64,000 nucleotides of DNA from Candidatus Zhuqueibacterota bacterium (GTDB taxonomy: Bacteria > Zhuqueibacterota > Zhuqueibacteria > Residuimicrobiales > Krinioviventaceae), in NCBI GenBank assembly GCA_016934825.1, contig JAFGSB010000067.1, forward strand, positions 7,280 through 71,279, read 5' to 3'. Both the position numbers and the translations under genes were made by a program. Below the pieces are notes generated by a model. The model made no database searches, was not told the DNA's origin, and was given only the letters and a program-made list of their open reading frames with translations. This document shows, piece after piece, positions 1 through 52,550 of the stretch. Within the stretch, counting starts at the first letter, position 1, and every line of letters begins with the position of its first letter.

Positions 1-1
1 G

Positions 2-382
2 GGACTGTTTATTGTTTTTCGTTCAACAATAGAATTACGCGGTGAAGGTTTTGTCTGGTGGATCAAGGACCTGGCAAATCCGGATACTGTTGCGACATTG
101 CCTTTTTCAATCCCCATGTACGGCGATTCGGTAAATATTCTGCCGTTATTTATGGGCGCGACAATGCTTATTCAACAAAAATTGACCGTTACCGATCCGA
201 AACAAAAAGCAATGGTCTACTTTATGCCCATATTTCTCACTTTACTTTTTAATTCTTTTCCATCGGGACTGAATCTTTACTATGCGCTGTTTAATTTGTT
301 ATCAATAATTCAGCAAAAATATCTGGTACCAAGTCCGGCTGCAGCGAACCAGGAAAGTCTTGTTAAACGGAAGAAAAGATAA
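2..382 (+). CDS. yidC: Membrane protein insertase YidC, C-terminal fragment (5' end outside window)
   Basis: Open frame runs from the window start in frame 2. Translation (..LRGEGFVWWIKDLANPD.. ..LNLYYALFNLLSIIQQK..) resembles the conserved C-terminal TM region of YidC/Oxa1. Its position directly upstream of mnmE is the canonical arrangement. Confidence 0.7.
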   Translation, partial: GLFIVFRSTIELRGEGFVWWIKDLANPDTVATLPFSIPMYGDSVNILPLFMGATMLIQQKLTVTDPKQKAMVYFMPIFLTLLFNSFPSGLNLYYALFNLLSIIQQKYLVPSPAAANQESLVKRKKR

Positions 383-467
383 TTGATTTTATAAAAAGAT
401 AATAATTCCCGGCCTCGCTGTTTGTTTTTAGCGGGGCTTTATTTTTTAACCTGTATAAACCGGTTAC

Positions 468-1856
468 ATGCAAAGTTTAAAAGATACAATCGCCGCTATT
501 TCGACTCCCAGAGGTATTGGCGCCATTGCAATTGTCAGAATGAGCGGGACAAATTCAATCGATATAGCAGAAAAAATTTTTGTTCCGGCCAAAAAAGAGA
601 AAAAATTTCAACCCGGATTCGCTTATTTCGGCAATATTGTGGATCCTTTTTCAAACGATTCCTTAAAAAATATTGACCAGGTTGTTCTGACATATTTTAA
701 AACTCCGCGTTCCTACACAGGTGATGATGTTATTGAAATAAGTTGTCATGGAGGACTGTTTGTTGTTCAAGAAATTCTTGATTTAATATTAAGGGCAGGG
801 GCCCGTCTGGCGGACCCCGGTGAATTTACTTTACGCGCTTTTTTAAACGGAAAACTTGACCTGGTACAGGCCGAATCGATTATTGATCTGATATATGCGC
901 AGACGCAAAAAAGTTTACAATTATCATTTTCCCAGCTTTCCGGCAGTCTTTCGGAACGATTCAATCACTTAAAAATTTCGCTAAAGGAAAAATTATCACT
1001 TTTGGAAATCGAACTGGATTTCTCGGATGAGGATATTGAATTTGCCGGCCGCGATGACATATTAAAAGATATTGAAATCATTTTACAGGAAACCGAATCC
1101 TTGATCGAATCATTCAAGTTCGGCAGGATCATCCGGGAAGGCGCACATATTGTGATAATAGGAAAACCAAATGTCGGCAAATCAAGCATATTAAACAGAC
1201 TGTTACAGGAAGACAGGGCCATTGTTTCTGAAATCCCGGGCACAACACGCGACACCCTGGAGGAATCTTTAAATATCGAAGGGATGTTGTTTAAAATATC
1301 CGATACGGCCGGATTACGGGAAGCGCAGGATTTTATTGAAAAAGAGGGAGTAAAACGAACAGAGCGGCTCATTCGGCAGGCTGATATTATTTTACATGTT
1401 TTAGATGTCAGTGACGACTCTCCCAATAACGATTTTCTGGATTTATCCATTCAGAAACAACATAAAGAGATGTTTATTTTTAATAAAATTGATATAAAAA
1501 ATGAACAGGTTGTAATCGCGCTTGAAAATAAATATAAAGTGCGGACTATTCTTAAAATTTCAGCCAAAACCGGAGAAGGATTTGATCTATTAAAAAATGA
1601 ATTGATCACCCTGGTTTTAAATGATAAAGAATTAGCGGTTGATTCTATTATTTCCAGGGTACGTCATCGGGACGCCCTGATAAAAATTAAAGAATTCCTG
1701 TTAAACGCAAAAGATTCCATTAATAATCAAATGTCCCCGGAATTCATCGCACTTGACCTGAGGGGCGCGTTAAACGCGATAGGAGAGATTACCGGAGAAG
1801 TAACAACAGACGATATTTTGAATGATATTTTTTCAAAGTTTTGTATCGGAAAATAA
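468..1856 (+). CDS. mnmE: tRNA modification GTPase MnmE (TrmE)
   Basis: 462 aa. N-terminal MnmE domain, G-domain motifs (GKPNVGKSS, DTAGLRE), and the typical C-terminal ...CIGK end. Confidence 0.95.
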   Translation: MQSLKDTIAAISTPRGIGAIAIVRMSGTNSIDIAEKIFVPAKKEKKFQPGFAYFGNIVDPFSNDSLKNIDQVVLTYFKTPRSYTGDDVIEISCHGGLFVVQEILDLILRAGARLADPGEFTLRAFLNGKLDLVQAESIIDLIYAQTQKSLQLSFSQLSGSLSERFNHLKISLKEKLSLLEIELDFSDEDIEFAGRDDILKDIEIILQETESLIESFKFGRIIREGAHIVIIGKPNVGKSSILNRLLQEDRAIVSEIPGTTRDTLEESLNIEGMLFKISDTAGLREAQDFIEKEGVKRTERLIRQADIILHVLDVSDDSPNNDFLDLSIQKQHKEMFIFNKIDIKNEQVVIALENKYKVRTILKISAKTGEGFDLLKNELITLVLNDKELAVDSIISRVRHRDALIKIKEFLLNAKDSINNQMSPEFIALDLRGALNAIGEITGEVTTDDILNDIFSKFCIGK

Positions 1857-1862
1857 ATAAAT

Positions 1863-1878
1863 TGTTCCACGTGGAACA
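1863..1878. other. parS-like centromere site, TGTTCCACGTGGAACA, within the 26-bp perfect palindrome TAAATTGTTCCACGTGGAACAATTTA (1857..1882)
   Basis: Perfect 16-bp palindrome matching the canonical parS motif (tGTTnCACGTGnAACa) with a symmetric C/G variant. It sits immediately after the mnmE stop. An identical copy lies after mnmG. Confidence 0.6.
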
Positions 1879-1902
1879 ATTTATTCATACGGGAAAGATT
1901 TT

Positions 1903-3789
1903 ATGTATAACGATCAGTTTGACATCATTGTAATTGGCGCCGGTCATGCCGGATGTGAGGCTGGGCTGGCATCTGCACGCATGGGTGCGAAAACGCTGCT
2001 TGTTTCCATTAATTTATTCACCGTCGCGCAAATGTCGTGTAACCCCGCAATCGGAGGCCTGGCCAAGGGACATCTGGTGAAGGAAATCGATGCGATGGGC
2101 GGGGAAATCGGTGTTGTTGCGGACGACTCGGGCATTCAATTCAAAGTACTGAACAAATCTAAGGGACCGGCCGTCTGGTCCCTGCGAACCCAGAACGACC
2201 GACTGGATTATTCCGTCAAAATGAAACAGGTCCTTGAAAACCAGCCCAATCTGTCGTTAAGACAGCATGATGTTGTTGATCTGATTATAAAAAACAACAA
2301 GATTCGGGGCATTGTTACCGATATCGGCACAAACATTTATGGCAGCGCGGTCATTTTATGTAACGGCACCTTTTTAAACGGATTGATTCATATCGGTATG
2401 AAAAGTTTTACCGGCGGACGTTCCGGTGAACTGGCGTCTACCGGGCTGAGCCGGACTTTAAAAAAAGCGGGAATAACGGTAGGACGGTTAAAAACCGGCA
2501 CGCCGCCGCGTATCGACGGCAACAGCATTGATATTTCCGTTATGGACATTCAAAACGGTGATGAAAATCCCGTTCCTTTTTCCTATAAACATGAAAAAAT
2601 CAAAATTAACCAGTTACCCTGTTATTTGACCCGCACAACTCTTGAAACGCATGATATTTTACGTTCCGGACTGGACAGGTCCCCATTATACGCAGGCGTT
2701 ATCAAGGGCGTCGGCCCACGCTATTGTCCTTCGGTTGAAGATAAAATTGTCCGTTTTTCCGATAAAACAAGCCATCAAATTTTTTTAGAGCCGGAAGGAC
2801 GACATACACATGAATATTATCTGAACGGTTTTGCCACCAGTCTTCCGGAAGATATTCAGATAAAAGCCGTCAATTCTATTCCGGGACTTGGAAAGGCAAA
2901 AATTACCAGGCTGGGATATGCCATCGAGTACGACTATTTTCCGCCGACACAATTAAAGCCCACGCTTGAATCCAAAAAAGTTGACGGTCTGTACTTTGCG
3001 GGACAGATAAACGGCACCTCGGGATACGAGGAAGCGGCGGCGCAGGGAATGATGGCGGCGATAAATGCGGTATTAAAAACAAGGGGAGAGGAGCCTTTTA
3101 TCCTCGACCGGTCCGAGGCATATATGGGCGTATTAATCGACGATCTGGTCACGAAAGAGCTTTTCGAGCCGTACCGGATGTTCACATCGCGGGCCGAATA
3201 TCGTTTACTGCTGCGTCAGGATAACGCCGATTTAAGACTCATGGATTACGCATATAAATTCGGGTTAATCCCTGCCAAAGTTCATACCGATAAACAAAAG
3301 CGGAAGAAAGCAATTGACGAGGCTCTGATCTTTTTAAAGAATATTCGGCCCTCAATTGAGGACGTTAATCCCATTCTGGAGCGCGCCGGATCGAACCTGA
3401 TAAAAAATGTCGAAACGGTTGAAAGACTACTCAAGCGCCCCGAGCTCTCCATAACCGATTTTGAACCCATCAATTCGATGAAACTCTTTGCAAGAAATAC
3501 CGACCGCTTCTGGAAAAGAGTACAGGAGCAGGTGGAAATCGAGGTAAAATATGAGGGCTTTTTGGGACGTCAGAAAGAACAGGTAAAAAAATTAAAGGAC
3601 CAGGAATCTATGGTCATTCCGGATTTTATCGATTATTCAACCATTTTATCTATTTCCACTGAGGGACGGGAAAAATTAACCAGAATCAAACCGCGCACAT
3701 TGGGTCAGGCGTCACGTATATTGGGTGTTTCGGCTTCCGATGTTTCCATATTAATGGTTTATTTGAATAAATGGAGAAAGAAAAAATAA
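1903..3789 (+). CDS. mnmG: tRNA uridine 5-carboxymethylaminomethyl modification enzyme MnmG (GidA)
   Basis: 628 aa. FAD-binding N-terminus ([12 protein letters not shown]) and the conserved GidA core and C-terminal domain. Confidence 0.95.
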
Positions 3790-3790
3790 T

Positions 3791-3806
3791 TGTTCCACGT
3801 GGAACA
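3791..3806. other. parS-like centromere site, second copy (TGTTCCACGTGGAACA, within palindrome 3787..3810)
   Basis: Identical 16-mer to the one at 1863..1878. It abuts the mnmG stop codon and lies ~30 nt upstream of rsmG. Confidence 0.6.
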
Positions 3807-3822
3807 ATTATAAAAATAATAT

Positions 3823-4479
3823 ATGTTACCGCAGAACCAAAAAGAACTGAATGCTTTATCCAAAGAGTTAGATTTAACCGGCGAACAGATCGACCGGTTT
3901 TCCGCCTATATCAATTTACTTGAACAATGGAATCAACGCACCAATTTGGTATCCGGAAATGATATCGCGTCTATTGTATCCAAACATATACGGGAATCCC
4001 TTGAAATCCTTTTTTTGGATATATTAAAGGGAAGGAATACGATAATGGATATGGGAACAGGCGCCGGTTTTCCGGGAATTCCGCTTTCCATATTGAAACC
4101 ACAGCTTGATATGACTCTTGTTGAATCAAAAAAAATGAAAACCCTTTTTTTACAGGACGTCGTTAGTACTTTAAAATTGCAAAATGTGAATATTATATGT
4201 CAGAGGGTTGAAAATATAAAGGGGGATGAATTTTTATTCCAGTACGATGTAGTATTAGCCCGGGCAGTTACCCAATTAAAAAAGCTCTGGTTTTGGGGCA
4301 AGCCATTATTAAAAAATAACGGACTGCTAATTGCATATAAAGGGGGGGATATGGATAAAGAAATAAAAGAGCTTTTAAAAAAGGACAAACAGGTTGAATT
4401 GAAAAATTATCCCTTTCGGTGGTCCAACTCGAAGGATGATAAAAAGATTGTCGTTGTATACAGACAGGCATTTTCATAA
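3823..4479 (+). CDS. rsmG: 16S rRNA (guanine527-N7)-methyltransferase RsmG (GidB)
   Basis: 218 aa with a SAM-binding motif (MDMGTGAGFPGIPL). Canonical position after mnmG. Confidence 0.9.
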   Translation: MLPQNQKELNALSKELDLTGEQIDRFSAYINLLEQWNQRTNLVSGNDIASIVSKHIRESLEILFLDILKGRNTIMDMGTGAGFPGIPLSILKPQLDMTLVESKKMKTLFLQDVVSTLKLQNVNIICQRVENIKGDEFLFQYDVVLARAVTQLKKLWFWGKPLLKNNGLLIAYKGGDMDKEIKELLKKDKQVELKNYPFRWSNSKDDKKIVVVYRQAFS

Positions 4480-4510: not shown

Positions 4511-7500
4511 TTGATCAAAGAACAGATATTATCACTCTTTTCCGACAGCAAGCAGGTTTCAGAAATAATAAATAGTCTGGATCGATCCGAATCCGTTTCA
4601 GTAACCGGGACGCCCTTTTCATCACGGGCGTTTGTATTATCTTCGATATTAAAAAAGTATTCAAAAAATATACTGGTGATCCTGCCGGATGAAAAGGAAG
4701 CAAAGCTTTTTTTTGAAGATGTTTCAACCATTATTAACAGAACAAATGTTGAATTTTTCCCTCAATATAACCGTCAACTCTGGAGTGAACTGGGTCCGGT
4801 AAGTTCCCTGGTCGGCAGCAGAATTTTAACGCTTAAAGCCCTGCGGCAGCAAAAACCCAAATTGATTGTCGCGCCTGTCGGCGCTTTATTGGAAAAAGTA
4901 TCAAATCCGCAGCTCCTGGGAGAAAAAACAATACATATCCGTACCGGTTCGTCGCATAAATTTGAAGAGTTGATTGAAAATCTGGTAAATAACGGATATG
5001 TCCGTGAAGAGCGGGTGGACCGTCCGGGAGAAATGAGCGTCCGGGGCGGCTTGATTGATATATTTATGTATGAGGATGTTCATCCCTACCGCATCGAATT
5101 GTTCGGCGACGAGGTCGAATCCATACGAAAATTTGATATTGAAACACAAAGGTCCATTAACATATGCCCGGCTGTGGAAATTTTTCCGTTGGGGGCGGGG
5201 GGATTATATGGCCCTTTTGACGATCAGCCCCTTGACGAAATTAAACTGAACAGCACCGTACTGGATTACCTGCCCGCCGGTTCGATATTATGTTTTAATG
5301 ATTATCAATCAATAGAACGGGAAATTGAAGATGTCCAGAATGACATCACTTTTAGAATGGATTCTTTTATCAATGAACATAAAATAGACTCCCTTTCATA
5401 CAATATATTTTATTCCGGTTACAAGGCGCTGTTACAACAAACGGAAAAATTTAAAAAATTCGAATTTACTGTGCTGAACAGTACATTTGGAAAACGGGTC
5501 GATTTTGGTATGATTTCGTCGCCTGGATTTAACGGGAAATTTGACCTTTTTAAAAATGAAATCAATTCGCTGAATCCCTCTTCAACGGATCAAAAAAATC
5601 CGCAGCTCTTTTTTTGTTGCGATTCGTTAACCCAGGAAAACAGGATAAAGGATCTGCTTGCGGAAGAAAAATTTCCCGACACCGTTAAAACAACCGTCCT
5701 GAATATTTCCGAAGGTTTTCAGTGGCCATCCCGGGGTTTATATCTTTATACCAACAAAGAATTGTACAGCCGGGAAAAACGGCCCCGGCCGGATTGGATT
5801 GAAAAACGCAAGGTGGCTTTACGAAACCTGGCCACAATTCAGATCGGCGATTATGTTGTGCATAATGATTTCGGCATCGGCGTTTTTCGGGGATTGAAAA
5901 AAATCAGCGCCTATAAAAAAGAACTGGAGTGTTTGATCCTTGAATACCAGGACAACGACATTTTATACGTTCCGTTGGAAAAAATGGACCTGGTGCAAAA
6001 ATATTCCGGGCGCGACGGAACAATCCCGCATTTAAGTAAACTGGGGACAAAAGCCTGGGAAAAACTCAAAGGCAGAACAAAAGAAAATATTAAGGAAATT
6101 GCCATACAGTTAATAAAACTGTACGCCACCCGAAAGATGAAAAAGGGATTTGCTTTTTCTAAAGATTCCATTTGGCAGAAGGAACTTGAAGCCTCCTTTG
6201 AATTTGAAGAAACAATTGACCAATTATCCGCGATTAACAATATCAAGGATGATATGGAATCGTCACGTCCCATGGACAGGCTGGTCTGCGGCGATGTGGG
6301 TTTTGGTAAAACGGAGGTGGCAGTCCGCGCCGCATTCAAGGCCATCAATGACGGCAAACAGGCCGCGGTTCTTGTGCCGACGACAATCCTTGCCCAGCAA
6401 CATTTTGAGACATTTCACGGCAGGTTAAAGCAATTTCCGGTCAATATCGAGCTGTTGTCCAGATTCAAGACCCCGGCGCAGCAAAAGGATATTATAAAAA
6501 TGCTTGCGGCAGGGGAGATTGACCTGATCGTCGGCACGCATAGAATATTGTCTAAAGACATAAAATTCAACAGCTTGGGCCTGCTGGTCGTCGATGAAGA
6601 ACATCGGTTCGGGGTATTGCATAAAGAGAAGATAAAGCTATTAAAAACAACGGTTGACACTCTGTCTCTTTCCGCAACTCCGATTCCGAGAACCATGCAT
6701 ATGGCGTTAATGGGGGCCAAAGATATGTCGATCATCAATACGCCGCCGCATAATCGATTGCCCATTAAGACGGAAGTGTCCCGGTTTGACCGTGATTTTA
6801 TCAGGGAAATTATTTTAAAGGAAATTGACCGAAACGGCCAGGTATTTTTTGTCCATAATCGTGTGCAATCGATCTATGGAATCGCTAATTTATTGCGGCA
6901 AATAGTTCCTGAAGTCACAATAGCCGTGGCTCATGGGCAGATGAAAGCGCATACTCTGGAAAATGTAATGCAAAAATTTGCCCAGCAAAAAATACAGTGT
7001 CTTGTATGTACAATGATCATAGAATCGGGTATCGATTTACCGAACGTGAATACCCTGATCATCAACCGGGCGGACAAATTTGGTTTGGCGCAGTTATATC
7101 AATTACGCGGCCGGGTAGGGCGATCGGATTTACAGGCATATGCCTATTTACTGATCCCGCCGTTAAGAAAATTAACGCGCACCGCGATTAAACGGTTACA
7201 AACGATTCAGGAAATGTCCCTGCTGGGATCGGGATATAAAATAGCCATGCGGGACCTCGAAATTCGTGGTACTGGGAATATTTTTGGTCCGCAGCAAAGC
7301 GGTTTTGTGGACGCTCTTGGCTATGATTTGTATACAAAAATCATTAATGAAGCTGTTTTAGAGTTGAAAAAGGAATTAAAAACCGGGCCTGTTGAAAAAG
7401 AGGAAACGGTCAAAATTGAATCCAAAATTGATGTCAAGGTTGATGCATATTTACCGGATGATTATATAACCAATCCGTCTGAAAGGGTGGACCTTTACAG

Positions 7501-7864
7501 AAGGTTAATAGAGGCAAAAAAGACAGAACAAGTAGAGGATTTAAAGAATGAACTTTTAGACAGATTTGGACCGCTCCCGGAAAAAGCTCAAATATTGATT
7601 GATTATGTCCAGCTAAAACTGCTTGCCCAGAAAGCACTGGTTTCAAAACTTACCCTGACGGACACAAAAATAGTCGGCCAGTTTGCACATGAATTTTTAC
7701 CTGCAGGGGAACAATTTAAGGCCTGGTTTGGTAAAATTGTACAAAACGTCACGCAAAAATTTGAATTAAAACAGCAGGATAAGGAATTATTTTTTGAAAT
7801 TAAACTCAAACATTCTCAGGAACAAATATCAACCGCCAAAAACTTCTTGCAAAGTATAATATAA
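4511..7864 (+). CDS. mfd: Transcription-repair coupling factor Mfd (TTG start as listed)
   Basis: 1117 aa. UvrB-homology N-terminus, RNAP-interaction domain, superfamily-2 helicase motifs (GDVGFGKTEVA, DEEHRFGV), and a TRCF C-terminal domain. Confidence 0.95.
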   Translation: MIKEQILSLFSDSKQVSEIINSLDRSESVSVTGTPFSSRAFVLSSILKKYSKNILVILPDEKEAKLFFEDVSTIINRTNVEFFPQYNRQLWSELGPVSSLVGSRILTLKALRQQKPKLIVAPVGALLEKVSNPQLLGEKTIHIRTGSSHKFEELIENLVNNGYVREERVDRPGEMSVRGGLIDIFMYEDVHPYRIELFGDEVESIRKFDIETQRSINICPAVEIFPLGAGGLYGPFDDQPLDEIKLNSTVLDYLPAGSILCFNDYQSIEREIEDVQNDITFRMDSFINEHKIDSLSYNIFYSGYKALLQQTEKFKKFEFTVLNSTFGKRVDFGMISSPGFNGKFDLFKNEINSLNPSSTDQKNPQLFFCCDSLTQENRIKDLLAEEKFPDTVKTTVLNISEGFQWPSRGLYLYTNKELYSREKRPRPDWIEKRKVALRNLATIQIGDYVVHNDFGIGVFRGLKKISAYKKELECLILEYQDNDILYVPLEKMDLVQKYSGRDGTIPHLSKLGTKAWEKLKGRTKENIKEIAIQLIKLYATRKMKKGFAFSKDSIWQKELEASFEFEETIDQLSAINNIKDDMESSRPMDRLVCGDVGFGKTEVAVRAAFKAINDGKQAAVLVPTTILAQQHFETFHGRLKQFPVNIELLSRFKTPAQQKDIIKMLAAGEIDLIVGTHRILSKDIKFNSLGLLVVDEEHRFGVLHKEKIKLLKTTVDTLSLSATPIPRTMHMALMGAKDMSIINTPPHNRLPIKTEVSRFDRDFIREIILKEIDRNGQVFFVHNRVQSIYGIANLLRQIVPEVTIAVAHGQMKAHTLENVMQKFAQQKIQCLVCTMIIESGIDLPNVNTLIINRADKFGLAQLYQLRGRVGRSDLQAYAYLLIPPLRKLTRTAIKRLQTIQEMSLLGSGYKIAMRDLEIRGTGNIFGPQQSGFVDALGYDLYTKIINEAVLELKKELKTGPVEKEETVKIESKIDVKVDAYLPDDYITNPSERVDLYRRLIEAKKTEQVEDLKNELLDRFGPLPEKAQILIDYVQLKLLAQKALVSKLTLTDTKIVGQFAHEFLPAGEQFKAWFGKIVQNVTQKFELKQQDKELFFEIKLKHSQEQISTAKNFLQSII

Positions 7865-7928: not shown

Positions 7929-9647
7929 ATGAAAAATTTATCTCGATTATTGTTTATCACGATTATCATTTTGATAGCAGGTTGCGAAAATTATAAAATT
8001 GTAGCCCGTGTCGGCAATAGTCCGATTTATGTAAAGGATTTTAAGGCGGCGCTTTTAAAGGAGAACGGGATAAAATCTTATAATAAAATATCGGCCGTGG
8101 AAAAAGAAAATGTCCTCACTGCCATGATTGAGGAAAGGGTTCAGCTCCTTGACGCTTACCGAAATAATCTTGATACCGATCCTAAAATTTTAGAATCAAT
8201 TGAATACAGCGAATCAAGATTAATTTACGAAACGGTTTTGGAAAAGCAAATCGTTAATCGGGTGATCACCGAAAAAGACTTTAAAGACAGGTATGATAAA
8301 ATTTCCAGGGAAATAAAGGTACAACAAATATTTATTCCGGCGGTGAAATCCGATGATAAAGACCGCAAACAAAAAATTTTAAACCAGCTTGATTCGTTGC
8401 GTTATTTAATACTCCGGGGCGAAGATTTTGCCGCGTTAGCCAGAAAATTTTCCAAAGATTCCCTTTCCGCGGGTAAAGGGGGCGATCTGGGTTATCTCAA
8501 GTGGGATGACTCGAAATATAACGATATTTTTTATAACCGGATTTTTAAGTTAAAAAAAGGGGATGTTTCCAAAGTATTTGAAACAAAGAATGGTTATCAT
8601 CTGGTTCAGGTCGTTCAATCTCGTCCTGTTCCTGTTGAGCCATACGACATTCAAAAACCATTAATATTAAGAACATTTTACCGGGAAAAGACGGATGAAT
8701 TAAATAAACAATATTATGCATTTTTGGAAAAACTGGAAAAAAATAATCCCGTTACTTTCAATGATGAGAATATACAATCCCTTGTTGATTATATTCAGCA
8801 GCAGTCGGAGATCCTGAAAAAAGAAGGAAAACATTTTAACCTTAATGATGTTCTTGATGCCAAAGATCCTGAAATGCCGCTGTTCAAATATTCCAACAAA
8901 CAATATACCTTAAAACAATTTGTAGCTGATATCTCAAATATGTACTCGCTATATTATCCGGGTATGTTTTCACCTAAAAGATTAAATGAAACTTTAAAAA
9001 AACTTACAAGTCGGGAAATGATCGTTCTTTATGGCGATACTCATGGTTATCGTGAAATGAAATCAGTCAAAGAGAGTCTTTTAAAGAAAAAAGAAGAGTT
9101 GATGGTGAAGGAGAACAATGATCTCAAAGTAATGAGCGGTATTAACAATGATGAATTAAAAAAATATTATGAAAAAAATATTGATAAATTTCGGGAACCG
9201 GATAAATACAAGGTCCAGGAAATTCGTGTTAAGGACAAGGAACTGATCGATAAAATTTATGAAAAAGCCCTTAACAATGAAAATTTTGAAACCCTGTCTC
9301 TAAAATATAATGAAAATCAAAATACTATAAATAAAAAAGGAGTATTGGGCTCTATTACATCAAAACAATATGGCACGATTGGACAAACAGCCGCCTCCCT
9401 TACAATAAATGAGATTTCAAAGCCAATTGAATTTGACGGTTTTTATGTGATTATCAAAGTACTGGATATCCTTAAAGCTGAGCAAACACCCTTTGATAAA
9501 ATAAGTCGGGGTATTCGGATGGCGATTAGAAAAGAGATAGTTAATGAGAAAAAAGACAGTTGGTTAAAAGAAATGTATATTCAATATCCTGTTATTAAAT
9601 ATGAAAATGTAATGGAAAATGTATTCAAGAAAAAAGAAATTATTTAA
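7929..9647 (+). CDS. Lipoprotein peptidyl-prolyl cis-trans isomerase, PpiC/parvulin type (SurA/PrsA-like)
   Basis: Signal peptide plus lipobox (LIAGC). Parvulin rotamase motif (SKDSLSAGKGGDLGYLKWDD). Confidence 0.75.
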   Translation: MKNLSRLLFITIIILIAGCENYKIVARVGNSPIYVKDFKAALLKENGIKSYNKISAVEKENVLTAMIEERVQLLDAYRNNLDTDPKILESIEYSESRLIYETVLEKQIVNRVITEKDFKDRYDKISREIKVQQIFIPAVKSDDKDRKQKILNQLDSLRYLILRGEDFAALARKFSKDSLSAGKGGDLGYLKWDDSKYNDIFYNRIFKLKKGDVSKVFETKNGYHLVQVVQSRPVPVEPYDIQKPLILRTFYREKTDELNKQYYAFLEKLEKNNPVTFNDENIQSLVDYIQQQSEILKKEGKHFNLNDVLDAKDPEMPLFKYSNKQYTLKQFVADISNMYSLYYPGMFSPKRLNETLKKLTSREMIVLYGDTHGYREMKSVKESLLKKKEELMVKENNDLKVMSGINNDELKKYYEKNIDKFREPDKYKVQEIRVKDKELIDKIYEKALNNENFETLSLKYNENQNTINKKGVLGSITSKQYGTIGQTAASLTINEISKPIEFDGFYVIIKVLDILKAEQTPFDKISRGIRMAIRKEIVNEKKDSWLKEMYIQYPVIKYENVMENVFKKKEII

Positions 9648-9648
9648 A

Positions 9649-10497
9649 ATGAAAAAATTATTATTCTTAATTTTATTGCCACTTATAATAATCACTTTTT
9701 GCACAAAAGAAGACAAGCCGGATTCACCGATTGTTGCAAAAGTTGGCAAAGAGATATTTACGATGAATGACCTGAAACAGGTCATTCCCCAAAATTCGGA
9801 TCTGGATATTTCACCCCTGCAAATTCAGAATTATATCAAACGGTGGATTGAAAATGAATTGGTGTACCAGGAAGCGCTGGTAAACGGTTTTGAAAAAGAT
9901 TCCGATATTCAAAAAGGCATTGAAAAATTAATCCGGGATTACATTGTAGTCAAGTATTTAGAGAAAAACATTGATCAGGGCATTGAGGTGACCGAAGCCG
10001 AGATTGAAGAATTTTATCAAAATAATTCATCTGAATTCATACGGCCGAAAGATCTTTATCATATTCAACTTATTGCTGTAACGACATACAGGGAAGCAAA
10101 TGCGATTCGAAGCAGCCTGGTCAGCGGACAAAAGTTTGAGGACCTGGCCCGGGAACATTCACTCGATGAAAGCAGGGAAAACGGCGGAAACCTGGGCTGG
10201 CTGACACTTGATGAATTGCCTCCCATTTTGGCCGAAAAAGTGCCCTATAGCGGAATTAATATCATTAATCGTATTAAATCACTTGATGGTTATTATGTCA
10301 TTCGGGTAATCGAAAAACGCAGCAAGGGAGAGACTCAAACATTGGAAGAAGTTAGAGATATTATTACCTGGAGAGTTAAAGCCTGGAAAAGAGAGAACAA
10401 ATACAGAAGACTAATAACTTATCTGAGTGAAAATTCTAATGTTGAAACGAATTATAATATCATTCAGGAAATTTATAGTGATTCAATATCAAATTAG
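9649..10497 (+). CDS. Lipoprotein peptidyl-prolyl cis-trans isomerase, parvulin type
   Basis: Chosen start is the internal ATG (MKKLLFLILLPLIIITFC, signal peptide plus lipobox) right after the upstream stop, rather than the listed 9619. Parvulin motif (ENGGNLGWLTLDELP). Confidence 0.7.
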   Translation: MKKLLFLILLPLIIITFCTKEDKPDSPIVAKVGKEIFTMNDLKQVIPQNSDLDISPLQIQNYIKRWIENELVYQEALVNGFEKDSDIQKGIEKLIRDYIVVKYLEKNIDQGIEVTEAEIEEFYQNNSSEFIRPKDLYHIQLIAVTTYREANAIRSSLVSGQKFEDLAREHSLDESRENGGNLGWLTLDELPPILAEKVPYSGINIINRIKSLDGYYVIRVIEKRSKGETQTLEEVRDIITWRVKAWKRENKYRRLITYLSENSNVETNYNIIQEIYSDSISN

Positions 10498-10695
10498 AAA
10501 TATTGTCCGGGTAGCACGGAAAAGTCAACCTTGACCAAATAAGTTATTTATGTTTTGGAAACAAATTGTTATATGACTTGTTCAGCGAAACGGCTTTAAT
10601 TGCTTGATTATGTTGAACTTACGCTAATCATAAAGTGAGAGGGGCCGTTAACCGGCCGTAAGAGTTGTAAAATTGAAATAAAGGAAAAGAAGAAA

Positions 10696-12000
10696 ATGAA
10701 TAAAAAAATAAAAAGTATAATTTTATTCACACTGATTTTATTTTTGAATAATGGTTTCAGCCAGCAGTATCTTGACAGAATAATAGCAATTGTGGATGAT
10801 GATATTATCCTGGAATCTGAAGTAACGCAATCCGCATATTATATGGCAATGCAAAGTGGTGTTGATCCGGTTCAAAGTCCAGAAAAATATCTGGAAATAA
10901 AAAAACTGGTTCTGCAAAACCTGATCAGTTCAAAGTTACTTCTGATTCAGGCGGATAAAGATACGATTGAAGCGGATGCGAGGCAGGTTGATTCTTATTT
11001 ACAACAGGATTTGAATCGTATTATTCAACAGGTAGGCGGAGAGGAAAAAATAGAGCAAACACTGGGTATGCCCATGTCAAAATTTCGCCGAACGAGGCGG
11101 CAGGAGATTGAAAATGATTATCGTATAGGCATGGTGAGAGAACAAAAGTTTGCGAATATAATGGTATCCCGAAGAGAAGTAGAAAATTTTTATAAAACAC
11201 ATAAAGATTCGATTGGCAATATAAAAGAGACGGTGGATATTAGCCACATACTCATAACGGCCAAGCCCGGTGAATCAGCAAAAAAAGAAGCTTTTCAGAA
11301 AATCAAAGACTTGCGTAAACGAATATTGGATGGAGAGGATTTTGCGACACTGGCAAAACAGTATTCAGAGGACCCCGGGTCTGCAAGCAAAGGCGGCGAT
11401 CTGGGTTTTGTTTCACGCAGTACATTAGTACGGGAATATGCGGAAGCCGCACTACAACTGGAACCCGGTGAAATATCGGATATTGTGGAAACTAATTTCG
11501 GGTATCATATCATACGTCTTGAAGAAAAACGTGGAGACAAAATACATACCACACATATTTTAATAACCATAAAGCCAAACCGGGATGATGAAATTGCCGC
11601 CGCGGAAAAGATAAAACAAATCCATACCCAATTGGTGAACGGCAGCGATTTTGAGGAAATGGTGAAAGAATATTCCGAAGATGAATCGACAAACAAGCAG
11701 GGCGGCCATCTGGGGCGGTTTGAAGTTGAACAATTAAGAAATATGGCCAAAGAATTTGTTTACGCTTTAAAAGATGTCGAACCGGGCAATTATAGTGAGC
11801 CGATCAAAACTCAATACGGCTTTCATGTGTTAAAATTGAATGCAATTGAGGGAGCAAGAGAGTATGATATTGAAAAGGACTGGGATATTATTGAAAGCAT
11901 GGCTTTGGAATATAAAAAGCAGCAAGAATTTAAAAAGTGGTTAGATGAAATTAAAAATGAAGTCTATGTTGAAGTTAAAGAAACCGAATACAAAAGTTAA
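10696..12000 (+). CDS. surA: Periplasmic chaperone SurA-like with two parvulin domains
   Basis: Signal peptide, a SurA N-terminal chaperone region, and two rotamase domains (SKGGDLGFVSRSTL; KQGGHLGRFEVEQL). Confidence 0.8.
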   Translation: MNKKIKSIILFTLILFLNNGFSQQYLDRIIAIVDDDIILESEVTQSAYYMAMQSGVDPVQSPEKYLEIKKLVLQNLISSKLLLIQADKDTIEADARQVDSYLQQDLNRIIQQVGGEEKIEQTLGMPMSKFRRTRRQEIENDYRIGMVREQKFANIMVSRREVENFYKTHKDSIGNIKETVDISHILITAKPGESAKKEAFQKIKDLRKRILDGEDFATLAKQYSEDPGSASKGGDLGFVSRSTLVREYAEAALQLEPGEISDIVETNFGYHIIRLEEKRGDKIHTTHILITIKPNRDDEIAAAEKIKQIHTQLVNGSDFEEMVKEYSEDESTNKQGGHLGRFEVEQLRNMAKEFVYALKDVEPGNYSEPIKTQYGFHVLKLNAIEGAREYDIEKDWDIIESMALEYKKQQEFKKWLDEIKNEVYVEVKETEYKS

Positions 12001-12685
12001 TCATATATCCATACAGAGTATAAAAAAATTATATATATTGTTTTTTGTATCTTTGCTTTTGGTTCATGGCGTGTGGGCTCAACCCGACGGCAGCCAGTTT
12101 ACTGTTGCAAGATTAAAATATATGGGCGGTGGAGATTGGTATAATGATCCATCCTCAATACCAAATTTATTGGATTATTTAAAGCAACATACCAATATCG
12201 ATGCGGCAAAAGATGAAGTCAAAGTCAGCATTCTGGATGAAGACTTTTTTTCATATCCTTTTATATTTATGACCGGTCATGGCCGGATTTCTTTTACCAC
12301 GAAAGAAGCGGAACGGCTGAGAACTTATTTAACACATGGCGGGTTTCTTTATGCGGATGACGATTATGGGATGGATGAACACTTTAAAAGTGAAATGAAA
12401 AAAGTTTTTCCCGACAAACAAATGGTTGAAATCCCGTTTTCACATACAATTTTTAAAAGCCACTTTGAATTTTCAAACGGATTGCCGAAAATCCATGAAC
12501 ATGACGGCGGACCGCCCGCCGGTTACGGTTATTTTCATGACGGCCGGCTGGTGGTGTTTTATTCGTTTAATACAAATATTTCTGACGGCTGGGCCGATCC
12601 CGAGGTTCATGGAAATCCCCCGGATAAACGTGAACTGGCATTCCGAATGGGAACCAATATAATTGTATATGCTTTAATGAATTGA
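11945..12685 (+). CDS. DUF4159 family protein (class-I glutamine-amidotransferase-like fold), secreted
   Basis: The motif ARLKYMGGGDWYNDPSS...FIFMTGHG...GGFLYADDDYGMD is characteristic of DUF4159. Signal peptide (LLVHGVWA). The true start is uncertain (11945, 11966 or later); the listed start overlaps the surA 3' end. Confidence 0.6.
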   Translation: MKLKMKSMLKLKKPNTKVNHISIQSIKKLYILFFVSLLLVHGVWAQPDGSQFTVARLKYMGGGDWYNDPSSIPNLLDYLKQHTNIDAAKDEVKVSILDEDFFSYPFIFMTGHGRISFTTKEAERLRTYLTHGGFLYADDDYGMDEHFKSEMKKVFPDKQMVEIPFSHTIFKSHFEFSNGLPKIHEHDGGPPAGYGYFHDGRLVVFYSFNTNISDGWADPEVHGNPPDKRELAFRMGTNIIVYALMN

Positions 12686-15600
12686 TGAAATCAATAACAC
12701 CGACATACGATAGTCTTTTGAAAAAGTTAAAACGCTTTCGTTCCCTTGAAAAGCGTATTTTTTTTTACAAGGGGGTATGCCGTTTTGTTGCCGTGATTTT
12801 GTCAATTATTTTAGTTCTGCTTTTTCTGGAATCGATTTTTGGCTTTCCCCCCACAGTTAAACTCGCGGTAATCGCTTTCTTTTTATTGACAAGCGCCATT
12901 TTATTTGCCGTTTATATAATTAAACCGTTGTATTTTGTTCTGTTTCGTTCCGGGATTCCCTCACTCAATGACGTTGCCTTAAAAGTTGGTTCATTTTATA
13001 AAAATGTCGATGACAGGCTCGCGAATGCGCTGCAATTGTTTCAAAAATATTATAACGATAAAAAATATTCCAAATCCTTAATAGAAGAATCGATAAAAAC
13101 GGTTTCCGGATCGTTACATGAGAAAAATTTTTCCGAATTGATCGATTATAAACCGTTTTATGCCTCGTTGAAAATTGTTATCGCGACGCTGGCATTTTCT
13201 GGCTTGTTTTGGATCCTTTTATACAGCCAGTTGAATATTTCTTTTATTCATTTCATTTACCCCTGGCGTGATTATCAATCCGGACAGGTCACATTTCATG
13301 TTTTACCGGGTGACACTACGGTCCTGAGCGGGTTGGATGTCCCTGTAAAAGTGTGGCTTTCCGATTCAACGGTGAACAGTATAGAATTATACGCATCACG
13401 CAAAAGTCCCGTTATTGTGCAAAAAACAGCACAGGATTCATTTTATTATACATTTAAAAATGTGAAGGATTCGTTAACCTATTTTGTTTCTCTTCAAGAT
13501 CAAAAGTCAAAAAGCTTTATCATTTCGGTTGAAGAGCGTCCCCTTTTAAGAAGTTTAAAAGTAAATGTAATACCTCCGTCATATTCGAAATTACAACCTT
13601 ATAACCTGGAGGAAAATGTCGGCGACATCTCCGCATTGAAGGGCACACAAATAAATATCTCCGCGTTGGCGAATAAAACACTTGAATCCGCCGCATTACA
13701 TTTTACAAGCGGAAAAAAACTTGATACCCGGGTAAATAACCGGGAAGTAAATACAACCGTTACTATACAGCGGGATGACGCCTATTATTTTGAATTGCTG
13801 GATGAATTCGGATATAAAAGCGAGAACCCGATTACTTATTATATCAGGATCATTCCGGATCAATATCCGTTAATACAGATTTTACAACCGGGAAAAGATA
13901 TTGATCTGGGTGAAAATATGACCATTCCGTTATTAATGCTGGCTCAGGATGACTATGGTATATCCAATATACGGCTGGCGTACCAGGTAATACCACAGGA
14001 CGAAGAACAATTTGATTCAACAAAGTTTGTTTTTCAGGAACTGGAAGGAATAAACTACGGACAGGATGTTTTACGCGTCGGTTTGAATTGGGACCTTTCT
14101 GAATCCGATTTGCTGCCCACCGATGTGGTTGTCTATTATGTAGAAGTGTATGATAATGACCAGGTCAGCGGACCGAAAAGGGGTAAAAGCAAAGTTTATC
14201 GCGCGCGCTTTCCGTCGATGTACGAGTTATACCAGGAAGTTGCCTCAACCCAGGATGAAACCATCAGGGAAATGGAGGAGATTTATGACCGGGGGCAGAA
14301 AATGAAACAAAAGCTGGATGAGCTGTCCCTGGATATGAAAAGGGCCGCGGAAATGGATTGGGAAAAGCAGCAGGAGGCTGAAGAAGCCCTAAAAAGACAA
14401 CAGGAAATAAAGCAAAAACTGGAAGAGCTTGCCGGTAATTTAAATGAAATGGTTGAAAAAATGGAGAAAAATGATCTTGCCTCCCCCGAGACCATGAAAA
14501 AATACCGGCAAGTACAGGAACTTTATCAGGAGATTATGACGCCGGAATTGGAAAAGGTCATGCGGGAGATGGCCGAAGCCATTCAAAACCTGGATAAAAA
14601 TTTGTTACAAAAGGCGCTTGAAGATTTCAAGATGACGGAAGAAGATTTTAATAAAAGTCTTGACCGGACCATATCCCTGTTAAAAAAACTCAAGATCGAA
14701 CAAAAACTCGATCAGGCAATTAAGATGACTAAAAACCTGGCCGAACGGCAGCAGGAACTTGACAACAAGGCTCAAACCGCTGCCGATAAAGACCGGTTGT
14801 TAAAAGAACAACAAAACATCAATCAGGATAAACAGGCGTTAAGTGAATTACTTCAGGAATTGAAAGAGGAGATGAGCGAGGTGCCCGCCATGCCGGAAAA
14901 AGAACTGAATAATGCGCTGACACAACTAAAATCCGACAGCTTGTCCAATGATCTTCAAAGTCTGGAAAGCATGATCCTGTCCGGCAATATGGACCAATTC
15001 CCGCAATATTCTAAAAATGTACAAAAGAAATTGAACGAGGTATCCCAACAACTGCAGCAGGCAAAAGAATCAATGTCGGGAGAGATGTTCCGCAGAGCTT
15101 TAATGGATATGAAAAAGAACAGCCGGCAGTTACTGGAACTTTCGAAACAGCAGGAAGCCGTTTTGGAACAGACAAAAGAGCTTCCGAACAACAGCGCCAA
15201 AACAACAGAAATGGCCGAACAACAGCAGGGATTATATTCCGGATTGAATCGGGTTGTGGATAAAATATTTGCATTATCGAAAGAAAATTTTGCCATATCA
15301 CCGGGAATAAACCAGGCTTTAGGCAGCGCATCATTACAAATGAAAAGCGCCTTGAATTCACTGGAAGAAAGGAATAACGCAGTTGCGGCCAGAAGCCAGG
15401 CCCAGGCCATGTCGTCAATTAATGATGCCATCCGGCAGTTGCAAAGCAACATGCAGAACATGATGCAGGCATCCGGGTCGGGTATGAGTTTTCAACAATT
15501 TATGGAAAAAATGCAGCAAATGGCAAAGGGCCAGCAGGGTATTAATGAGCAGACATTACAAATGGGACTTGGGAATCAACTGTCCCTTGCCCAACAAGCG

Positions 15601-16038
15601 GAAATGGCCAGGATGAGCGCTGAACAGGGACAGGTCCGCAAGTCCATGGAAGAACTTGCCCGGGAAGCGAAAGGAATGTCCGATGTCCTCGGAGACCTTG
15701 ATCAGATCGTCAAGGACATGAAAGAGGTTGAAAAAGACTTTGCGCAAAACAATATCAGCAGGGAAACCATTGAAAGACAAAACAGAATTCTGTCCCGAAT
15801 GCTGGATGCCCAGCGATCCATTCGTGAGCGGGAGTACAGCCGGAAAAGACAGGCGGAGAGCGGCAAGGACTATATTGCCAAAAGTCCGGATGAGTTACCG
15901 GAAAAAATTGGAGAACTTGAAAACCGTCTGCAGCAGGATTTGCTCCGGGCCAAAAAAGAAGGTTATACCCGCGATTATCTGGAATTAATTAAACAATATT
16001 TTGAAGCATTAACCAATCAAGATAAAAAAAGTGAATAA
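12685..16038 (+). CDS. Large membrane-anchored protein with a ~700-aa Q/E/K-rich coiled-coil C-terminal half (possibly the DUF4175 family that often pairs with DUF4159)
   Basis: Four predicted N-terminal TM helices, a middle beta-rich domain, then a long low-complexity coiled-coil. ATG at 12685 overlaps the upstream TGA (TGATG); the listed TTG at 12682 is less likely. Confidence 0.65.
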   Translation: MKSITPTYDSLLKKLKRFRSLEKRIFFYKGVCRFVAVILSIILVLLFLESIFGFPPTVKLAVIAFFLLTSAILFAVYIIKPLYFVLFRSGIPSLNDVALKVGSFYKNVDDRLANALQLFQKYYNDKKYSKSLIEESIKTVSGSLHEKNFSELIDYKPFYASLKIVIATLAFSGLFWILLYSQLNISFIHFIYPWRDYQSGQVTFHVLPGDTTVLSGLDVPVKVWLSDSTVNSIELYASRKSPVIVQKTAQDSFYYTFKNVKDSLTYFVSLQDQKSKSFIISVEERPLLRSLKVNVIPPSYSKLQPYNLEENVGDISALKGTQINISALANKTLESAALHFTSGKKLDTRVNNREVNTTVTIQRDDAYYFELLDEFGYKSENPITYYIRIIPDQYPLIQILQPGKDIDLGENMTIPLLMLAQDDYGISNIRLAYQVIPQDEEQFDSTKFVFQELEGINYGQDVLRVGLNWDLSESDLLPTDVVVYYVEVYDNDQVSGPKRGKSKVYRARFPSMYELYQEVASTQDETIREMEEIYDRGQKMKQKLDELSLDMKRAAEMDWEKQQEAEEALKRQQEIKQKLEELAGNLNEMVEKMEKNDLASPETMKKYRQVQELYQEIMTPELEKVMREMAEAIQNLDKNLLQKALEDFKMTEEDFNKSLDRTISLLKKLKIEQKLDQAIKMTKNLAERQQELDNKAQTAADKDRLLKEQQNINQDKQALSELLQELKEEMSEVPAMPEKELNNALTQLKSDSLSNDLQSLESMILSGNMDQFPQYSKNVQKKLNEVSQQLQQAKESMSGEMFRRALMDMKKNSRQLLELSKQQEAVLEQTKELPNNSAKTTEMAEQQQGLYSGLNRVVDKIFALSKENFAISPGINQALGSASLQMKSALNSLEERNNAVAARSQAQAMSSINDAIRQLQSNMQNMMQASGSGMSFQQFMEKMQQMAKGQQGINEQTLQMGLGNQLSLAQQAEMARMSAEQGQVRKSMEELAREAKGMSDVLGDLDQIVKDMKEVEKDFAQNNISRETIERQNRILSRMLDAQRSIREREYSRKRQAESGKDYIAKSPDELPEKIGELENRLQQDLLRAKKEGYTRDYLELIKQYFEALTNQDKKSE

Positions 16039-33417: not shown

Positions 33418-36400
33418 TTGAATACATTAAAATATATTCGTGTAGCGATTATTCTTTTATTATCAGCAGTTCCGGCACTCGTGCAGGGAGCGCCCCTTAC
33501 CGGTGTAACGATTACACCCACTGATAACACCTACGGTCAGTCGGCAACGTATACATTTACATTTACCACGCAAACAATAATTCCAGCGGACGGGAAAATT
33601 GCATTCATATTTCCGGCTCAATTCAATTTAATTTATCTTAATAGTTGTGGCACCGGAACTCCAACAATTCTTAACGGAGGATTTAATAATCCACCGCCGA
33701 TTGAAAATGATGGTACAGGCAATCAGACTGTGATTGTTGCCCGGAAGGGGCCGGGGAATACTCCAGTTCCAGCAGGATCAACAATCAGCGTGCTTTTGGG
33801 CATGGTTACAAATCCCTTAAATCCGTCGTCTGCGGATATAATCGCAATCGAGACAAGGAATGTAAGTAACGGTGTTTTGGATACCGGCCAGTCTTCCGTA
33901 AGTCTTGCCGGACCGATAAACAGTTTTACGCTGTCCAACCCGGCGGGAGTGACCGCCGGCATGCCGTTTTCGTTGTCCGTCTCCAACGCGGTCGACGGCA
34001 ACGGCAATCCGGCCAGCGGCACCATACAAGTGACCACGAAAACCGGCGGCGGTGAAGCCCCGGACGGGACCGACCCTTCGGTTCAGGATATCGTGGTTAC
34101 GGCCGGAAACGGCAGCGCCCAGCAGACTTTATATAAAGCCGAATCCGGCGTCGTCCTCACCGGTATCCTGTCGTCGGACGGTTCGGTAACGGACGATACC
34201 AGTCCCTTTACCGTTGGCAGCGCGGGGATCAATTCGTTTACCATGACCGGCGTGCCGACAAACGTCCAGGCCGGCGTCAGTTTTACGAACATTACGGTCA
34301 CCGCGCTGGATGTTTATGAGAATACCGTCTCGGATTATACCGGATCGGTTTGGTTTACCACGACATCATCGGGCTATACCCTGCCATATTACGCGGGCCA
34401 GCCGTACACATTTCAACTGGCCGACAACGGATCGCATACATTTACGAATTTTATATTACGGGAGGCCGGCAATCAAACCCTGACCATCACCGACGGAACC
34501 CGCAGTACGGTTTCCGGCAATATCCAGGTCAATGCCGGTCCGATTGCCGATTTTACGTTCGCGGCAAGTCCGTCGCCCACGGCCGGACAGCAAATCAGGT
34601 TAAACGTGACCAGCGCCGTCGACGCGGCCGGCAATCCGCTGAATGTCCCGGTGGCCCTTTCTTTTGTCGGCGGGGGCAGTCACAGTTCGCCCAACGGCCA
34701 GACGCCGGTTTTGCCGGATAATATCAATGTGGTTAACGGTTCCGGATACACGGATATCGTTCTTTTTAACGCCGAAAGCAACCTGCAAATCCAGGCGGTG
34801 TCCGGCGGGATCACCCGGACCACGGCGCCCTTTACGGTTGCGCCGGGGAACCTTTTCCGGTTCGGCATTACAGGGTACCCGGCCAGCACGGTCAGCGGCA
34901 ATCCGTTCACCTCGGATGTGAACGTAACCGCGTATGACGTCTATGGAAACCAGAAAACCAACTATGCCGGTACAGTCGGTTTCAGTTCAACGGACAATTC
35001 CGCCGATTTACCTTCTTCCGCCGGACTAACAGTCGGAACCAGAACATTTTCCGGCAGCAGCTTTGTTTTGAGAACCGTCGGCAATCAACGGATTTTTGTT
35101 TCCGATTTAAGCGGGTCCGGTGTATCCGATACGACGAATTATATAAATGTTACAAATCCCGCCATCTCCATTACTGAAATTACCCCTTCCCGAACGACAG
35201 TGACACAGGGCCAGACGACCCCATGGACCGTAACGATGGGAGTTCACAATTCCGGGGCTTCAACGATTACTATATCGGCAAATGAATTGCAAACCTATAT
35301 TAAATTTACCAGGGGCGGGAATGATTATACATCGCAATATACGATAGACGGACCGCAGGGTAGCTTTGTTCTGACCGGCGGAAGCACGACTTTTTTAACT
35401 TTTTCGATAACACAAACCGGAACAACCACCGGGGTTATTGATATTTTCGGCCGGGTTGCAACTACCACGGGCGGTTATACCAATTCTATTTTGAGCGACG
35501 TATATGGCGGCATTGAAGTACAAAGCCCGGAAGCTCTTCAGATCGTGTCCATAACGCCTTCCCAGCAAACCGTTACTTCGGGAGACAATACCCACAACTG
35601 GACGGTAGCCGTCCAGTTAAGAAACAACGGCGGCAGCGAAGCGGGAATCGATTTTGCATCCAGCAGTCTGGCGTCCCAGGCAATTGTCGTCTTTCAAAGA
35701 CCGACAACTTTCCAGGACGCGACAACGACCCTGAAAGCAAACGAAACCAAGACAATGATATTTACAGTAACGGAAAATTCCACATTACTCGGAGCCCATA
35801 CTATAAACGCCCAGATCCAATATCATGTGATCAATACCGGTGAAAACAAAAGTCTGCCCCCGGCCAATCCCGGGACCGTTACGGTGCAGGCGCCGTCAAA
35901 TCTGCTGGTCACCAGCGTTATCCCCACGCGGAACCAGTTGACAATCGGCAGTTCCACGGAGTGGGATATTCGTGTTCTGGTTAGCAATACCGGCGGTTCG
36001 GATGTTAATCTTGATTTAACTCAGGCAAATACCTGGGTGAAAATATTTAGTGGCGCTACCGAGGTGACCGATTTTGATATAACCTGGCCGACGGCGCTGA
36101 AAAACACGGGAAATACCACACTCGCAGCAGGTTCACAGGATGAGCTTGTTTATCATGTAACCCAGAATTCCTTTTCCGCCGGGACAATGGATATTCTTGC
36201 CAGGGCACAGGGGACGGAACCGAACAGGGCATTGATCATATTTTACGAAACATCGGTGGGAGACGGCCATTCCGGAACGGTGCAGATGCAGTTGCCGTCC
36301 AATGTTTCCTATGTGAGTTCCAGTTTACAGCCGACCAGCGTGTTTCCGCGAACTCCGGCTGAATTTCAAATTTCAGTAAGCAACACCGGCGGTGCAACCG

Positions 36401-44874: not shown

Positions 44875-44893
44875 AAAAGGACAACTATTTTTA

Positions 44894-52527: not shown

Positions 52528-52550
52528 CTCATTTTAAAAGAGATAAAGCA

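Follow-up and report, generated by a model that had tools for sequence, protein, structure and literature searches.

Palindromes identical to Pseudomonas parS flank mnmG in an uncultured KSB1 bacterium and parS-class sites recur beside mnmG across phyla

Introduction

The origin-proximal gene block of Bacillus subtilis runs rpmH-rnpA-spoIIIJ-jag-thdF-gidA-gidB-noc-soj-spo0J. This block is ancestral, is transcribed away from oriC, and is the same block as that in the DNA analyzed here. Of the B. subtilis parS sites, the best known is within spo0J, and the rest are scattered over the origin-proximal region and not placed in the gaps flanking gidA.

In Pseudomonas putida, the parS sequence is TGTTCCACGTGGAACA (PMC7022226). 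In Pseudomonas aeruginosa, parS2 and parS3 are the highest-affinity ParB sites, and a single origin-proximal parS is both necessary and sufficient for segregation (PMC4368675).

Here, we analyzed a 64-kb window, by which we mean the whole stretch of DNA presented above, from an uncultured KSB1 bacterium. A sequence-only reading of this DNA had proposed that two parS-like palindromes flank mnmG, and we compared the locus with that of relatives, with described parS sites, and with mnmG loci of other phyla.

Results

Gene context and the two 16-mers

Matches to family models confirmed that the window carries yidC, mnmE, mnmG, and rsmG in that order, followed by mfd, as the sequence-only reading had it. 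The features of the locus are as follows.

1..382, plus strand: 3' end of yidC (L001 2666-4447; Pfam YidC_periplas/60KD_IMP)
411..438, plus strand: intrinsic-terminator-like hairpin and T-run after yidC (RNA fold -16.9 kcal/mol)
468..1856, plus strand: mnmE (TIGR00450, 414 bits)
1856..1885, no strand: perfect palindrome around site 1, 30 nt, with an AT-rich 7-bp extension on each side
1863..1878, no strand: parS-class site 1, TGTTCCACGTGGAACA, in the 46-bp mnmE-mnmG gap; identical to P. aeruginosa parS2/3
1903..3789, plus strand: mnmG (gidA), between the two parS-class sites (TIGR00136, 840 bits)
3786..3811, no strand: perfect palindrome around site 2, 26 nt
3791..3806, no strand: parS-class site 2, TGTTCCACGTGGAACA, in the 33-bp mnmG-rsmG gap
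3823..4479, plus strand: rsmG (gidB) (TIGR00138, 156 bits)
4511..7864, plus strand: mfd, right after rsmG, in the slot of parA-parB in more distant relatives

The hairpin at 411-438 probably sets off mnmE-mnmG-rsmG-mfd as a transcription unit of its own, and three SurA/PrsA-like isomerases are encoded downstream of mfd. All of the genes in the window are on the plus strand, and the GC skew is positive throughout. The host is not a Firmicute despite this marked co-orientation and window-wide positive skew. Exact sequence matches show the proteins to be MBN2411576-MBN2411578, from a 72.9-kb contig of a candidate division KSB1 MAG. The nearest species-level genome that we compared was another KSB1 MAG, with an MnmG identity of only 59%.

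The 16-mer TGTTCCACGTGGAACA is present in exactly two copies, one in each of the gaps flanking the tRNA-modification gene mnmG, and a motif scan bore out both of the positions proposed for it (1863..1878 and 3791..3806). Site 1 begins 6 nt past the mnmE stop codon (TAA, 1854-1856), with the mnmG ATG 24 nt downstream, and site 2 begins 1 nt past the mnmG stop codon (TAA, 3787-3789), with the rsmG ATG 16 nt downstream. The spacing between the sites is 1,928 bp, and a 22-mer, AATTGTTCCACGTGGAACAATT, is identical in both copies. A genome-wide scan for the 16-mer had been suggested as a check. Run over 68 kb (the 64-kb window and its 4,065-bp upstream extension, L001), it returned these two copies and no further match with up to three mismatches. 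By chance, about 1e-5 exact copies of the 16-mer would be expected in 64 kb after adjustment for composition. With up to three mismatches allowed, shuffled sequence gave a mean of 0.25 matches, and two matches were reached in 3 of 100 shuffles. Half-sites were not significantly enriched in the window (12 seen, 4 of them within the two sites, versus 5.7±2.5 expected). We rejected a dispersed palindromic repeat (REP/MITE-like) as the origin of the two copies because of their number, only two, and their orthologous placement across phyla.

The window 16-mer is identical at 16 of 16 positions to P. aeruginosa parS2/parS3, is the same as P. putida parS, and matches all 14 specified positions of the parS consensus, TGTTNCACGTGNAACA. 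It had been described as the other symmetric variant of the motif; it is instead the well-studied perfect-palindrome parS of Pseudomonas.

Conservation of the sites among relatives

We compared the locus with those of 39 relatives obtained from a metagenome scan with YidC. At the mnmE-mnmG junction, a parS-class site with at least the 14-bp core, GTT(C/T)CACGTG(A/G)AAC, was found in 17 of the 17 relatives in which the junction was visible. The site or at least its 14-bp core was likewise found at the mnmG-rsmG junction in all relatives with that junction (12/12). The mean pairwise identity in the 16-mer was 0.93 at the first junction and at least 0.81 at the second (anchored on the site), while that in each adjacent 16-nt window was only 0.28 to 0.38. 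The genes next to the sites encode proteins that were only about 30 to 88% identical among the relatives. Sites so much more alike than their flanks, next to proteins that have diverged, are the mark of a protein-binding site under purifying selection. The sites hold ancestral positions, in the small gaps that flank mnmG within the rpmH-rnpA-yidD-yidC-mnmE-mnmG-rsmG block.

The two 16-mers have several of the properties of chromosomal parS. They are 16-bp inverted repeats of the TGTTNCACGTGNAACA class, they are few, clustered, and not dispersed (two copies 1.9 kb apart within 68 kb), and they are conserved in a sequence-specific manner at orthologous positions, as befits a trans-acting reader. 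Judged by sequence identity and conservation, which also support the proposal that parS-class loading sites for ParB lie within the mnmE-mnmG-rsmG gaps, the two 16-mers flanking mnmG are almost certainly parS sites.

The palindromes that enclose the sites are longer than the 26 and 24 nt first reported, at 30 and 26 nt. The extension is missing in the closest relative (L082, 86% identical), and 75 of 121 distinct sites are without any palindrome extension. Because the extension is not conserved even in a relative 86% identical, it has no evident extra meaning, and we rejected a separate significance for the extended palindrome of 26 to 30 nt. The AT-rich extension of the site 1 palindrome is probably incidental.

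A different explanation is that the palindromes, lying between mnmE, mnmG, and rsmG, work at the level of RNA as intrinsic terminators, attenuators, or processing hairpins, and that their likeness to parS is a coincidence. The hairpins would be stable (-14.1 and -12.6 kcal/mol, with stems of 13 and 11 bp), both palindromes lie directly after stop codons, and a terminator-like call was made for the site 2 palindrome, though only on the antisense (minus) strand. However, nothing is transcribed on the minus strand there, and neither site was called as a terminator on the sense strand because neither has an adequate T-run, whereas a canonical terminator was called at 411-438. The 14 specific bases are also invariant in the 121 distinct sites, where a hairpin would allow compensatory changes. 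Moreover, 35 of the 121 sites are asymmetric at positions 5/12, and C·A mismatches on the sense strand (18) are about as frequent as U·G wobbles (17). Invariant bases, asymmetry, and the near equality of C·A and U·G therefore fit a dimeric DNA-binding protein and not an RNA stem, and the stem extension is itself not conserved. An intrinsic terminator was rejected, as we found neither a sense-strand stem-loop with a U-run nor covariation of the hairpin type. We consider an RNA-level function for these palindromes very unlikely.

Position of parAB

It had been noted that parAB are absent from their usual slot after rsmG and that mfd is there instead. We confirmed this arrangement and found it to be common to KSB1-like relatives, with the rsmG-mfd order present in the window, L002, and L084-L090. 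The location of parA and parB, another of the suggested checks, was addressed by an HMM search of the 68 kb with models made from ParA and ParB sequences of distant relatives, and no ParA or ParB gene was found there (best E above 1). The 20-kb loci of the rsmG-mfd lineage were searched with HMMs as well and gave none either. The classical order, yidC-mnmE-parS-mnmG-parS-rsmG-parA-parB, is present in distant relatives; L070, L077, and L111-L114 have rsmG-parA-parB with recognizable ParA and ParB. A search of 5.8 billion proteins placed the ParB of L111 among Chitinivibrionales; the top 120 matches listed included Chitinivibrionales and unlabelled proteins, and none was labelled KSB1. In the KSB1-like lineage, parAB no longer holds its classical slot behind rsmG, where mfd is found instead. 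The sites are strictly maintained in this lineage, which is indirect evidence that the genome encodes ParB.

The displacement of parAB from its ancestral position, together with the lack of parB in the 68 kb and in the 20-kb rsmG-mfd loci, would also fit a site with a different reader, such as a Noc-like ParB paralogue or a transcription factor that recognizes CACGTG, or a pair of relics of a lost ParABS. The Noc-binding consensus of B. subtilis is ATTTCCCGGGAAAT, but the window site matches parS and not the Noc site. The conservation covers all 14 specified positions and so extends beyond the CACGTG core. A relic would decay, but the two copies are perfect and match each other exactly, and the 0.93 identity of the 16-mer extends across relatives that likewise lack adjacent parAB. 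We give only a very slim chance to another reader or to relics, and the reading of the sites as parS for a ParB encoded elsewhere is the one that we carry forward.

Relation to the origin of replication

We found dnaA 2 to 3 kb upstream of yidC in six relatives (L084, L085, L086, L088, L089, and L090). In these six, (gyrA-gyrB-)recF-dnaN-dnaA on the minus strand is followed by rpmH-rnpA-yidD-yidC-mnmE-parS-mnmG-parS-rsmG-mfd on the plus strand. A DnaA-box cluster lies beside dnaA in most of the six, with up to three perfect TTATCCACA in L084, and the GC skew changes sign near dnaA in L086, L089, and L090. Given dnaA, the DnaA boxes, and the skew switch, parS in these relatives therefore lies about 4 to 8 kb from the probable oriC.

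The dnaA-rpmH linkage of the relatives is broken in the window genome, where a DHO_dh-family gene and an unassigned plus-strand ORF lie ahead of rpmH. In L083, the nearest relative with upstream sequence, an unrelated Big_1/T9SS-tail protein precedes rpmH. Between -4 kb and +64 kb, we found neither dnaA nor a skew switch, and DnaA boxes numbered at most 2 per 500 bp and formed no cluster. The expectation of the sequence-only reading that dnaA/oriC would lie just upstream of yidC-rnpA-rpmH thus failed within the 4 kb of upstream sequence, and the GC-skew analysis that it had suggested gave a uniformly positive skew with no switch over the same -4 to +64 kb. Its broader claim, that the window is next to the origin, has only indirect support, from the position of dnaA near yidC in the six relatives; in the genome itself, no dnaA/oriC was found from -4 to +64 kb. 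By ancestry and leading-strand character, the window is likely to be origin proximal.

Association of parS with mnmG across phyla

The comparison across phyla covered 80 MnmG loci, drawn from Bacteroidota, Balneolota, Rhodothermota, Chlorobi, KSB1, and Nitrospirota. An exact TGTTNCACGTGNAACA lies within 400 bp of mnmG in 54 of the 80 loci; with one mismatch allowed the count rises to 71, and with two to 75. The density of exact sites near mnmG is 233-fold that of the surrounding 1.29 Mb, and no exact site lies inside mnmG in any of the 80 loci. The sites hug the gene: ahead of the mnmG start codon the median gap is 19.5 bp, and past the stop codon it is 8 bp. The parS-mnmG-parS arrangement is thus conserved across phyla. 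Most Bacteroidota loci no longer have mnmE, rsmG, and yidC next to mnmG; in one Flavobacteriaceae locus, for example, the order is DUF4175-ybeY-parS-mnmG-parS-methyltransferase-ompH. The parS pair has been kept while the other neighbors of mnmG changed, and therefore it travels with mnmG. To see whether mnmG lies at the origin in Bacteroidota-type genomes, we averaged the GC skew around mnmG in 56 such loci; it showed no clean switch and only a local positive block from -4 to 0 kb, which corresponds to co-oriented upstream genes and not to rRNA. We found no published description of parS sites flanking mnmG in the searchable literature, although a prior description is possible; the survey of Livny et al. 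in 2007 is the likeliest place for an earlier mention.

The closeness of the sites to mnmG in many phyla, and the persistence of the pairing through the change of every other neighbor, led us to weigh whether the sites are real ParB targets with a mainly local role. ParB would then regulate or insulate mnmG (and rsmG) and so couple tRNA/rRNA modification to the chromosome cycle, and segregation would be secondary or would proceed through other sites. Some adjacent genes can be silenced by ParB spreading (PMC4010829). However, expression changes in few genes under the ParB spreading zone in Vibrio cholerae and B. subtilis, and the V. cholerae gidAB promoter is not regulated by ParA1/ParB1 (PMC4010829). 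Tight physical linkage alone could also move parS and mnmG together with no need for functional coupling. A local regulatory role of ParB at mnmG is possible, but that it should be the main role of the sites seems to us unlikely.

Discussion

The element that we describe is an ordinary and well-known one, parS, with a well-known sequence, here in a newly sampled phylum. From the sequence identity, the positions, and the conservation of the two sites and from the origin synteny of relatives, we consider it very likely that they are bona fide chromosomal parS and would serve as loading sites for a ParB encoded elsewhere in the KSB1 genome.

How the sites would act can be proposed from the established ParABS/SMC model. 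Through its helix-turn-helix, one ParB monomer would recognize each of the half-sites TGTTCCAC and GTGGAACA, and binding to parS would stimulate ParB to close, in a CTP-dependent manner, as a sliding clamp. This clamp would then leave the site and spread several kilobases in both directions, covering yidC through mfd and beyond. Because the two sites are only 1,928 bp apart, they would together nucleate a single partition complex centered on mnmG, which ParA would move and which would load the SMC condensin. ParB binding and spreading at this locus, a role in segregation, and a parB gene in this genome are what we infer from the parS reading.

The sites have practical value as an annotation anchor, since they would mark where the chromosomal centromere of this uncultured KSB1 organism lies and assign the contig to the ancestral origin-proximal block, on a leading strand. 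The parS-mnmG-parS arrangement across phyla is a by-product of the analysis and is more interesting than the window sites themselves. We tentatively suggest, as an idea that we hold to be more doubtful than probable, that it is a centromere cassette of ancient date, which selection has maintained in the FCB superphylum and neighboring lineages, and that it would imply a functional coupling of ParB loading and mnmG. The range that we propose takes in KSB1, Bacteroidota, Balneolota, Rhodothermota, Chlorobi, Fibrobacterota-like lineages, and Nitrospirota; to our knowledge, ParABS has never been studied experimentally in several of the phyla sampled. In such a cassette, which we put forward with the same reserve, parS would have stayed welded to mnmG even after mnmG left the origin block and parAB moved away. 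A coupling of ParB loading to the mnmG transcription unit is speculation. If it were true, the partition complex could be shaped or insulated by transcription of mnmG, or the expression of mnmG could be under the control of ParB as a gate, and a single gene would serve as a marker for locating centromeres in uncultured genomes. In most of the genomes sampled, parS lies within tens of base pairs of both ends of mnmG, and by this rule centromeres in FCB-group MAGs could be sought cheaply. The same pattern raises the question of why parS stays by mnmG while parAB and the remaining origin block do not.

The locus can be set beside four groups of described or related systems. Compared with the Spo0J parS of B. 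subtilis, TGTTCCACGTGAAACA, the window 16-mer shares 15 of 16 bases, and noc, soj, and spo0J, which belong to the B. subtilis block, are all missing from the window. Another arrangement is that of the classical gidA-gidB-parA-parB loci of the Nitrospirota (L070/L077) and Chitinivibrionales-like (L111-L114) relatives, which have the same parS junctions and the same yidC-mnmE-mnmG-rsmG order as the window. These loci continue with parA-parB, whereas the window, L002, and L084-L090 continue with mfd. The mnmG loci of Bacteroidota, Balneolota, and Rhodothermota have sites of the same class, often identical to TGTTCCACGTGGAACA, from a few to tens of base pairs from the ends of mnmG. They have no parAB within 10 kb and have lost mnmE, rsmG, and yidC as neighbors, unlike the window, which has kept the ancestral block.

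The fourth comparison is with Pseudomonas. In P. aeruginosa, parAB directly follow gidB, whereas the window locus has no parAB. The four key P. aeruginosa sites are about 10 to 20 kb away from gidAB-parAB, not on either side of gidA (PMC13438810), whereas the window sites bracket mnmG. The hosts belong to unrelated phyla, KSB1 for the window and Gammaproteobacteria for Pseudomonas. Even so, P. aeruginosa parS2/parS3 and P. putida parS are the same 16-bp perfect palindrome as the window sites and likewise occur in few copies, which in Pseudomonas cluster in the ori domain.

Placement of parS sites and gene order around mnmG

Throughout the Bacteroidota MnmG loci (L003-L081), we observed that the upstream parS frequently sits very near mnmG: in many of them it ends just 5 to 25 bp before the start codon (positions ~9,920-9,995). 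At so short a distance, the site falls within or beside the 5' leader or promoter of mnmG in these genomes. In one Flavobacteriaceae genome (L017), the parS upstream of mnmG overlaps the 3' end of ybeY, and some genomes (e.g., L065, L041, L003, and L015) carry 2 to 4 tandem parS sites at a spacing of ~45 bp.

The following genes bear on the order around mnmG.

Window 7929-12000: three SurA/PrsA/PpiC-type peptidyl-prolyl isomerase genes in a row, after mfd
Window 11945-16038: DUF4159 gene, then DUF4175 gene (1,118 aa)
L017 6318-9569: DUF4175 protein (1,083 aa), adjoining ybeY-parS-mnmG on the upstream side

The order of mfd followed by isomerase genes is common to the window, another KSB1 MAG (L002), and a relative's locus (L089). 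The DUF4159-DUF4175 pair of the window lies ~9 kb downstream of mnmG. That DUF4175 is found near mnmG in both the window and the Flavobacteriaceae genome may reflect an ancient gene order in this region, of which only traces are left.

In more distant relatives (L084-L090), dnaA still adjoins rpmH. This ancestral junction is broken independently in the window's genome, where one ORF and a DHO_dh-family gene precede rpmH (positions 1-1725 of L001, the upstream extension of the window), and in L083, another relative, where a Big_1/Por_Secre_tail protein is encoded at the disrupted junction (25-1338).

Other features of the window

33418-42801: giant ORF (3,127 aa)
42868-44874: TPR protein (668 aa), preceding the fusion protein gene
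44822-49135: fusion protein (1,437 aa) with HATPase_c_2, SpoIIE/PP2C phosphatase, and C-terminal TPR repeats
52440-52528: tRNA-Ser(GCU)

Within the giant ORF the G+C content is 0.46 to 0.51, versus 0.36 to 0.42 elsewhere, and the GC skew is flat or negative. Its sole Pfam match is a weak one, to NPCBM_assoc. The ORF possibly encodes an adhesin-like or other surface protein, or it may have been acquired horizontally. The HATPase_c_2 domain of the fusion protein is anti-sigma-factor kinase-like.

An Rfam match to "Plastid-psbl-rps4 3UTR RNA" (52475-52527, minus strand) scored 68.5 bits, which passes the gathering cut-off of 68. It runs antisense to tRNA-Ser(GCU) and almost certainly represents a false positive that stems from the tRNA.

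Strand bias and GC skew

Across the ~68 kb formed by the window (1-64000) and its upstream extension (L001 1-4065), every credible gene is on the plus strand. Over the same span, the GC skew is positive nearly everywhere (+0.05 to +0.19). The leading-strand gene bias is extreme for a diderm FCB-type (KSB1) genome; a comparable bias is usual in Firmicutes, which the window and its extension resemble in this respect.
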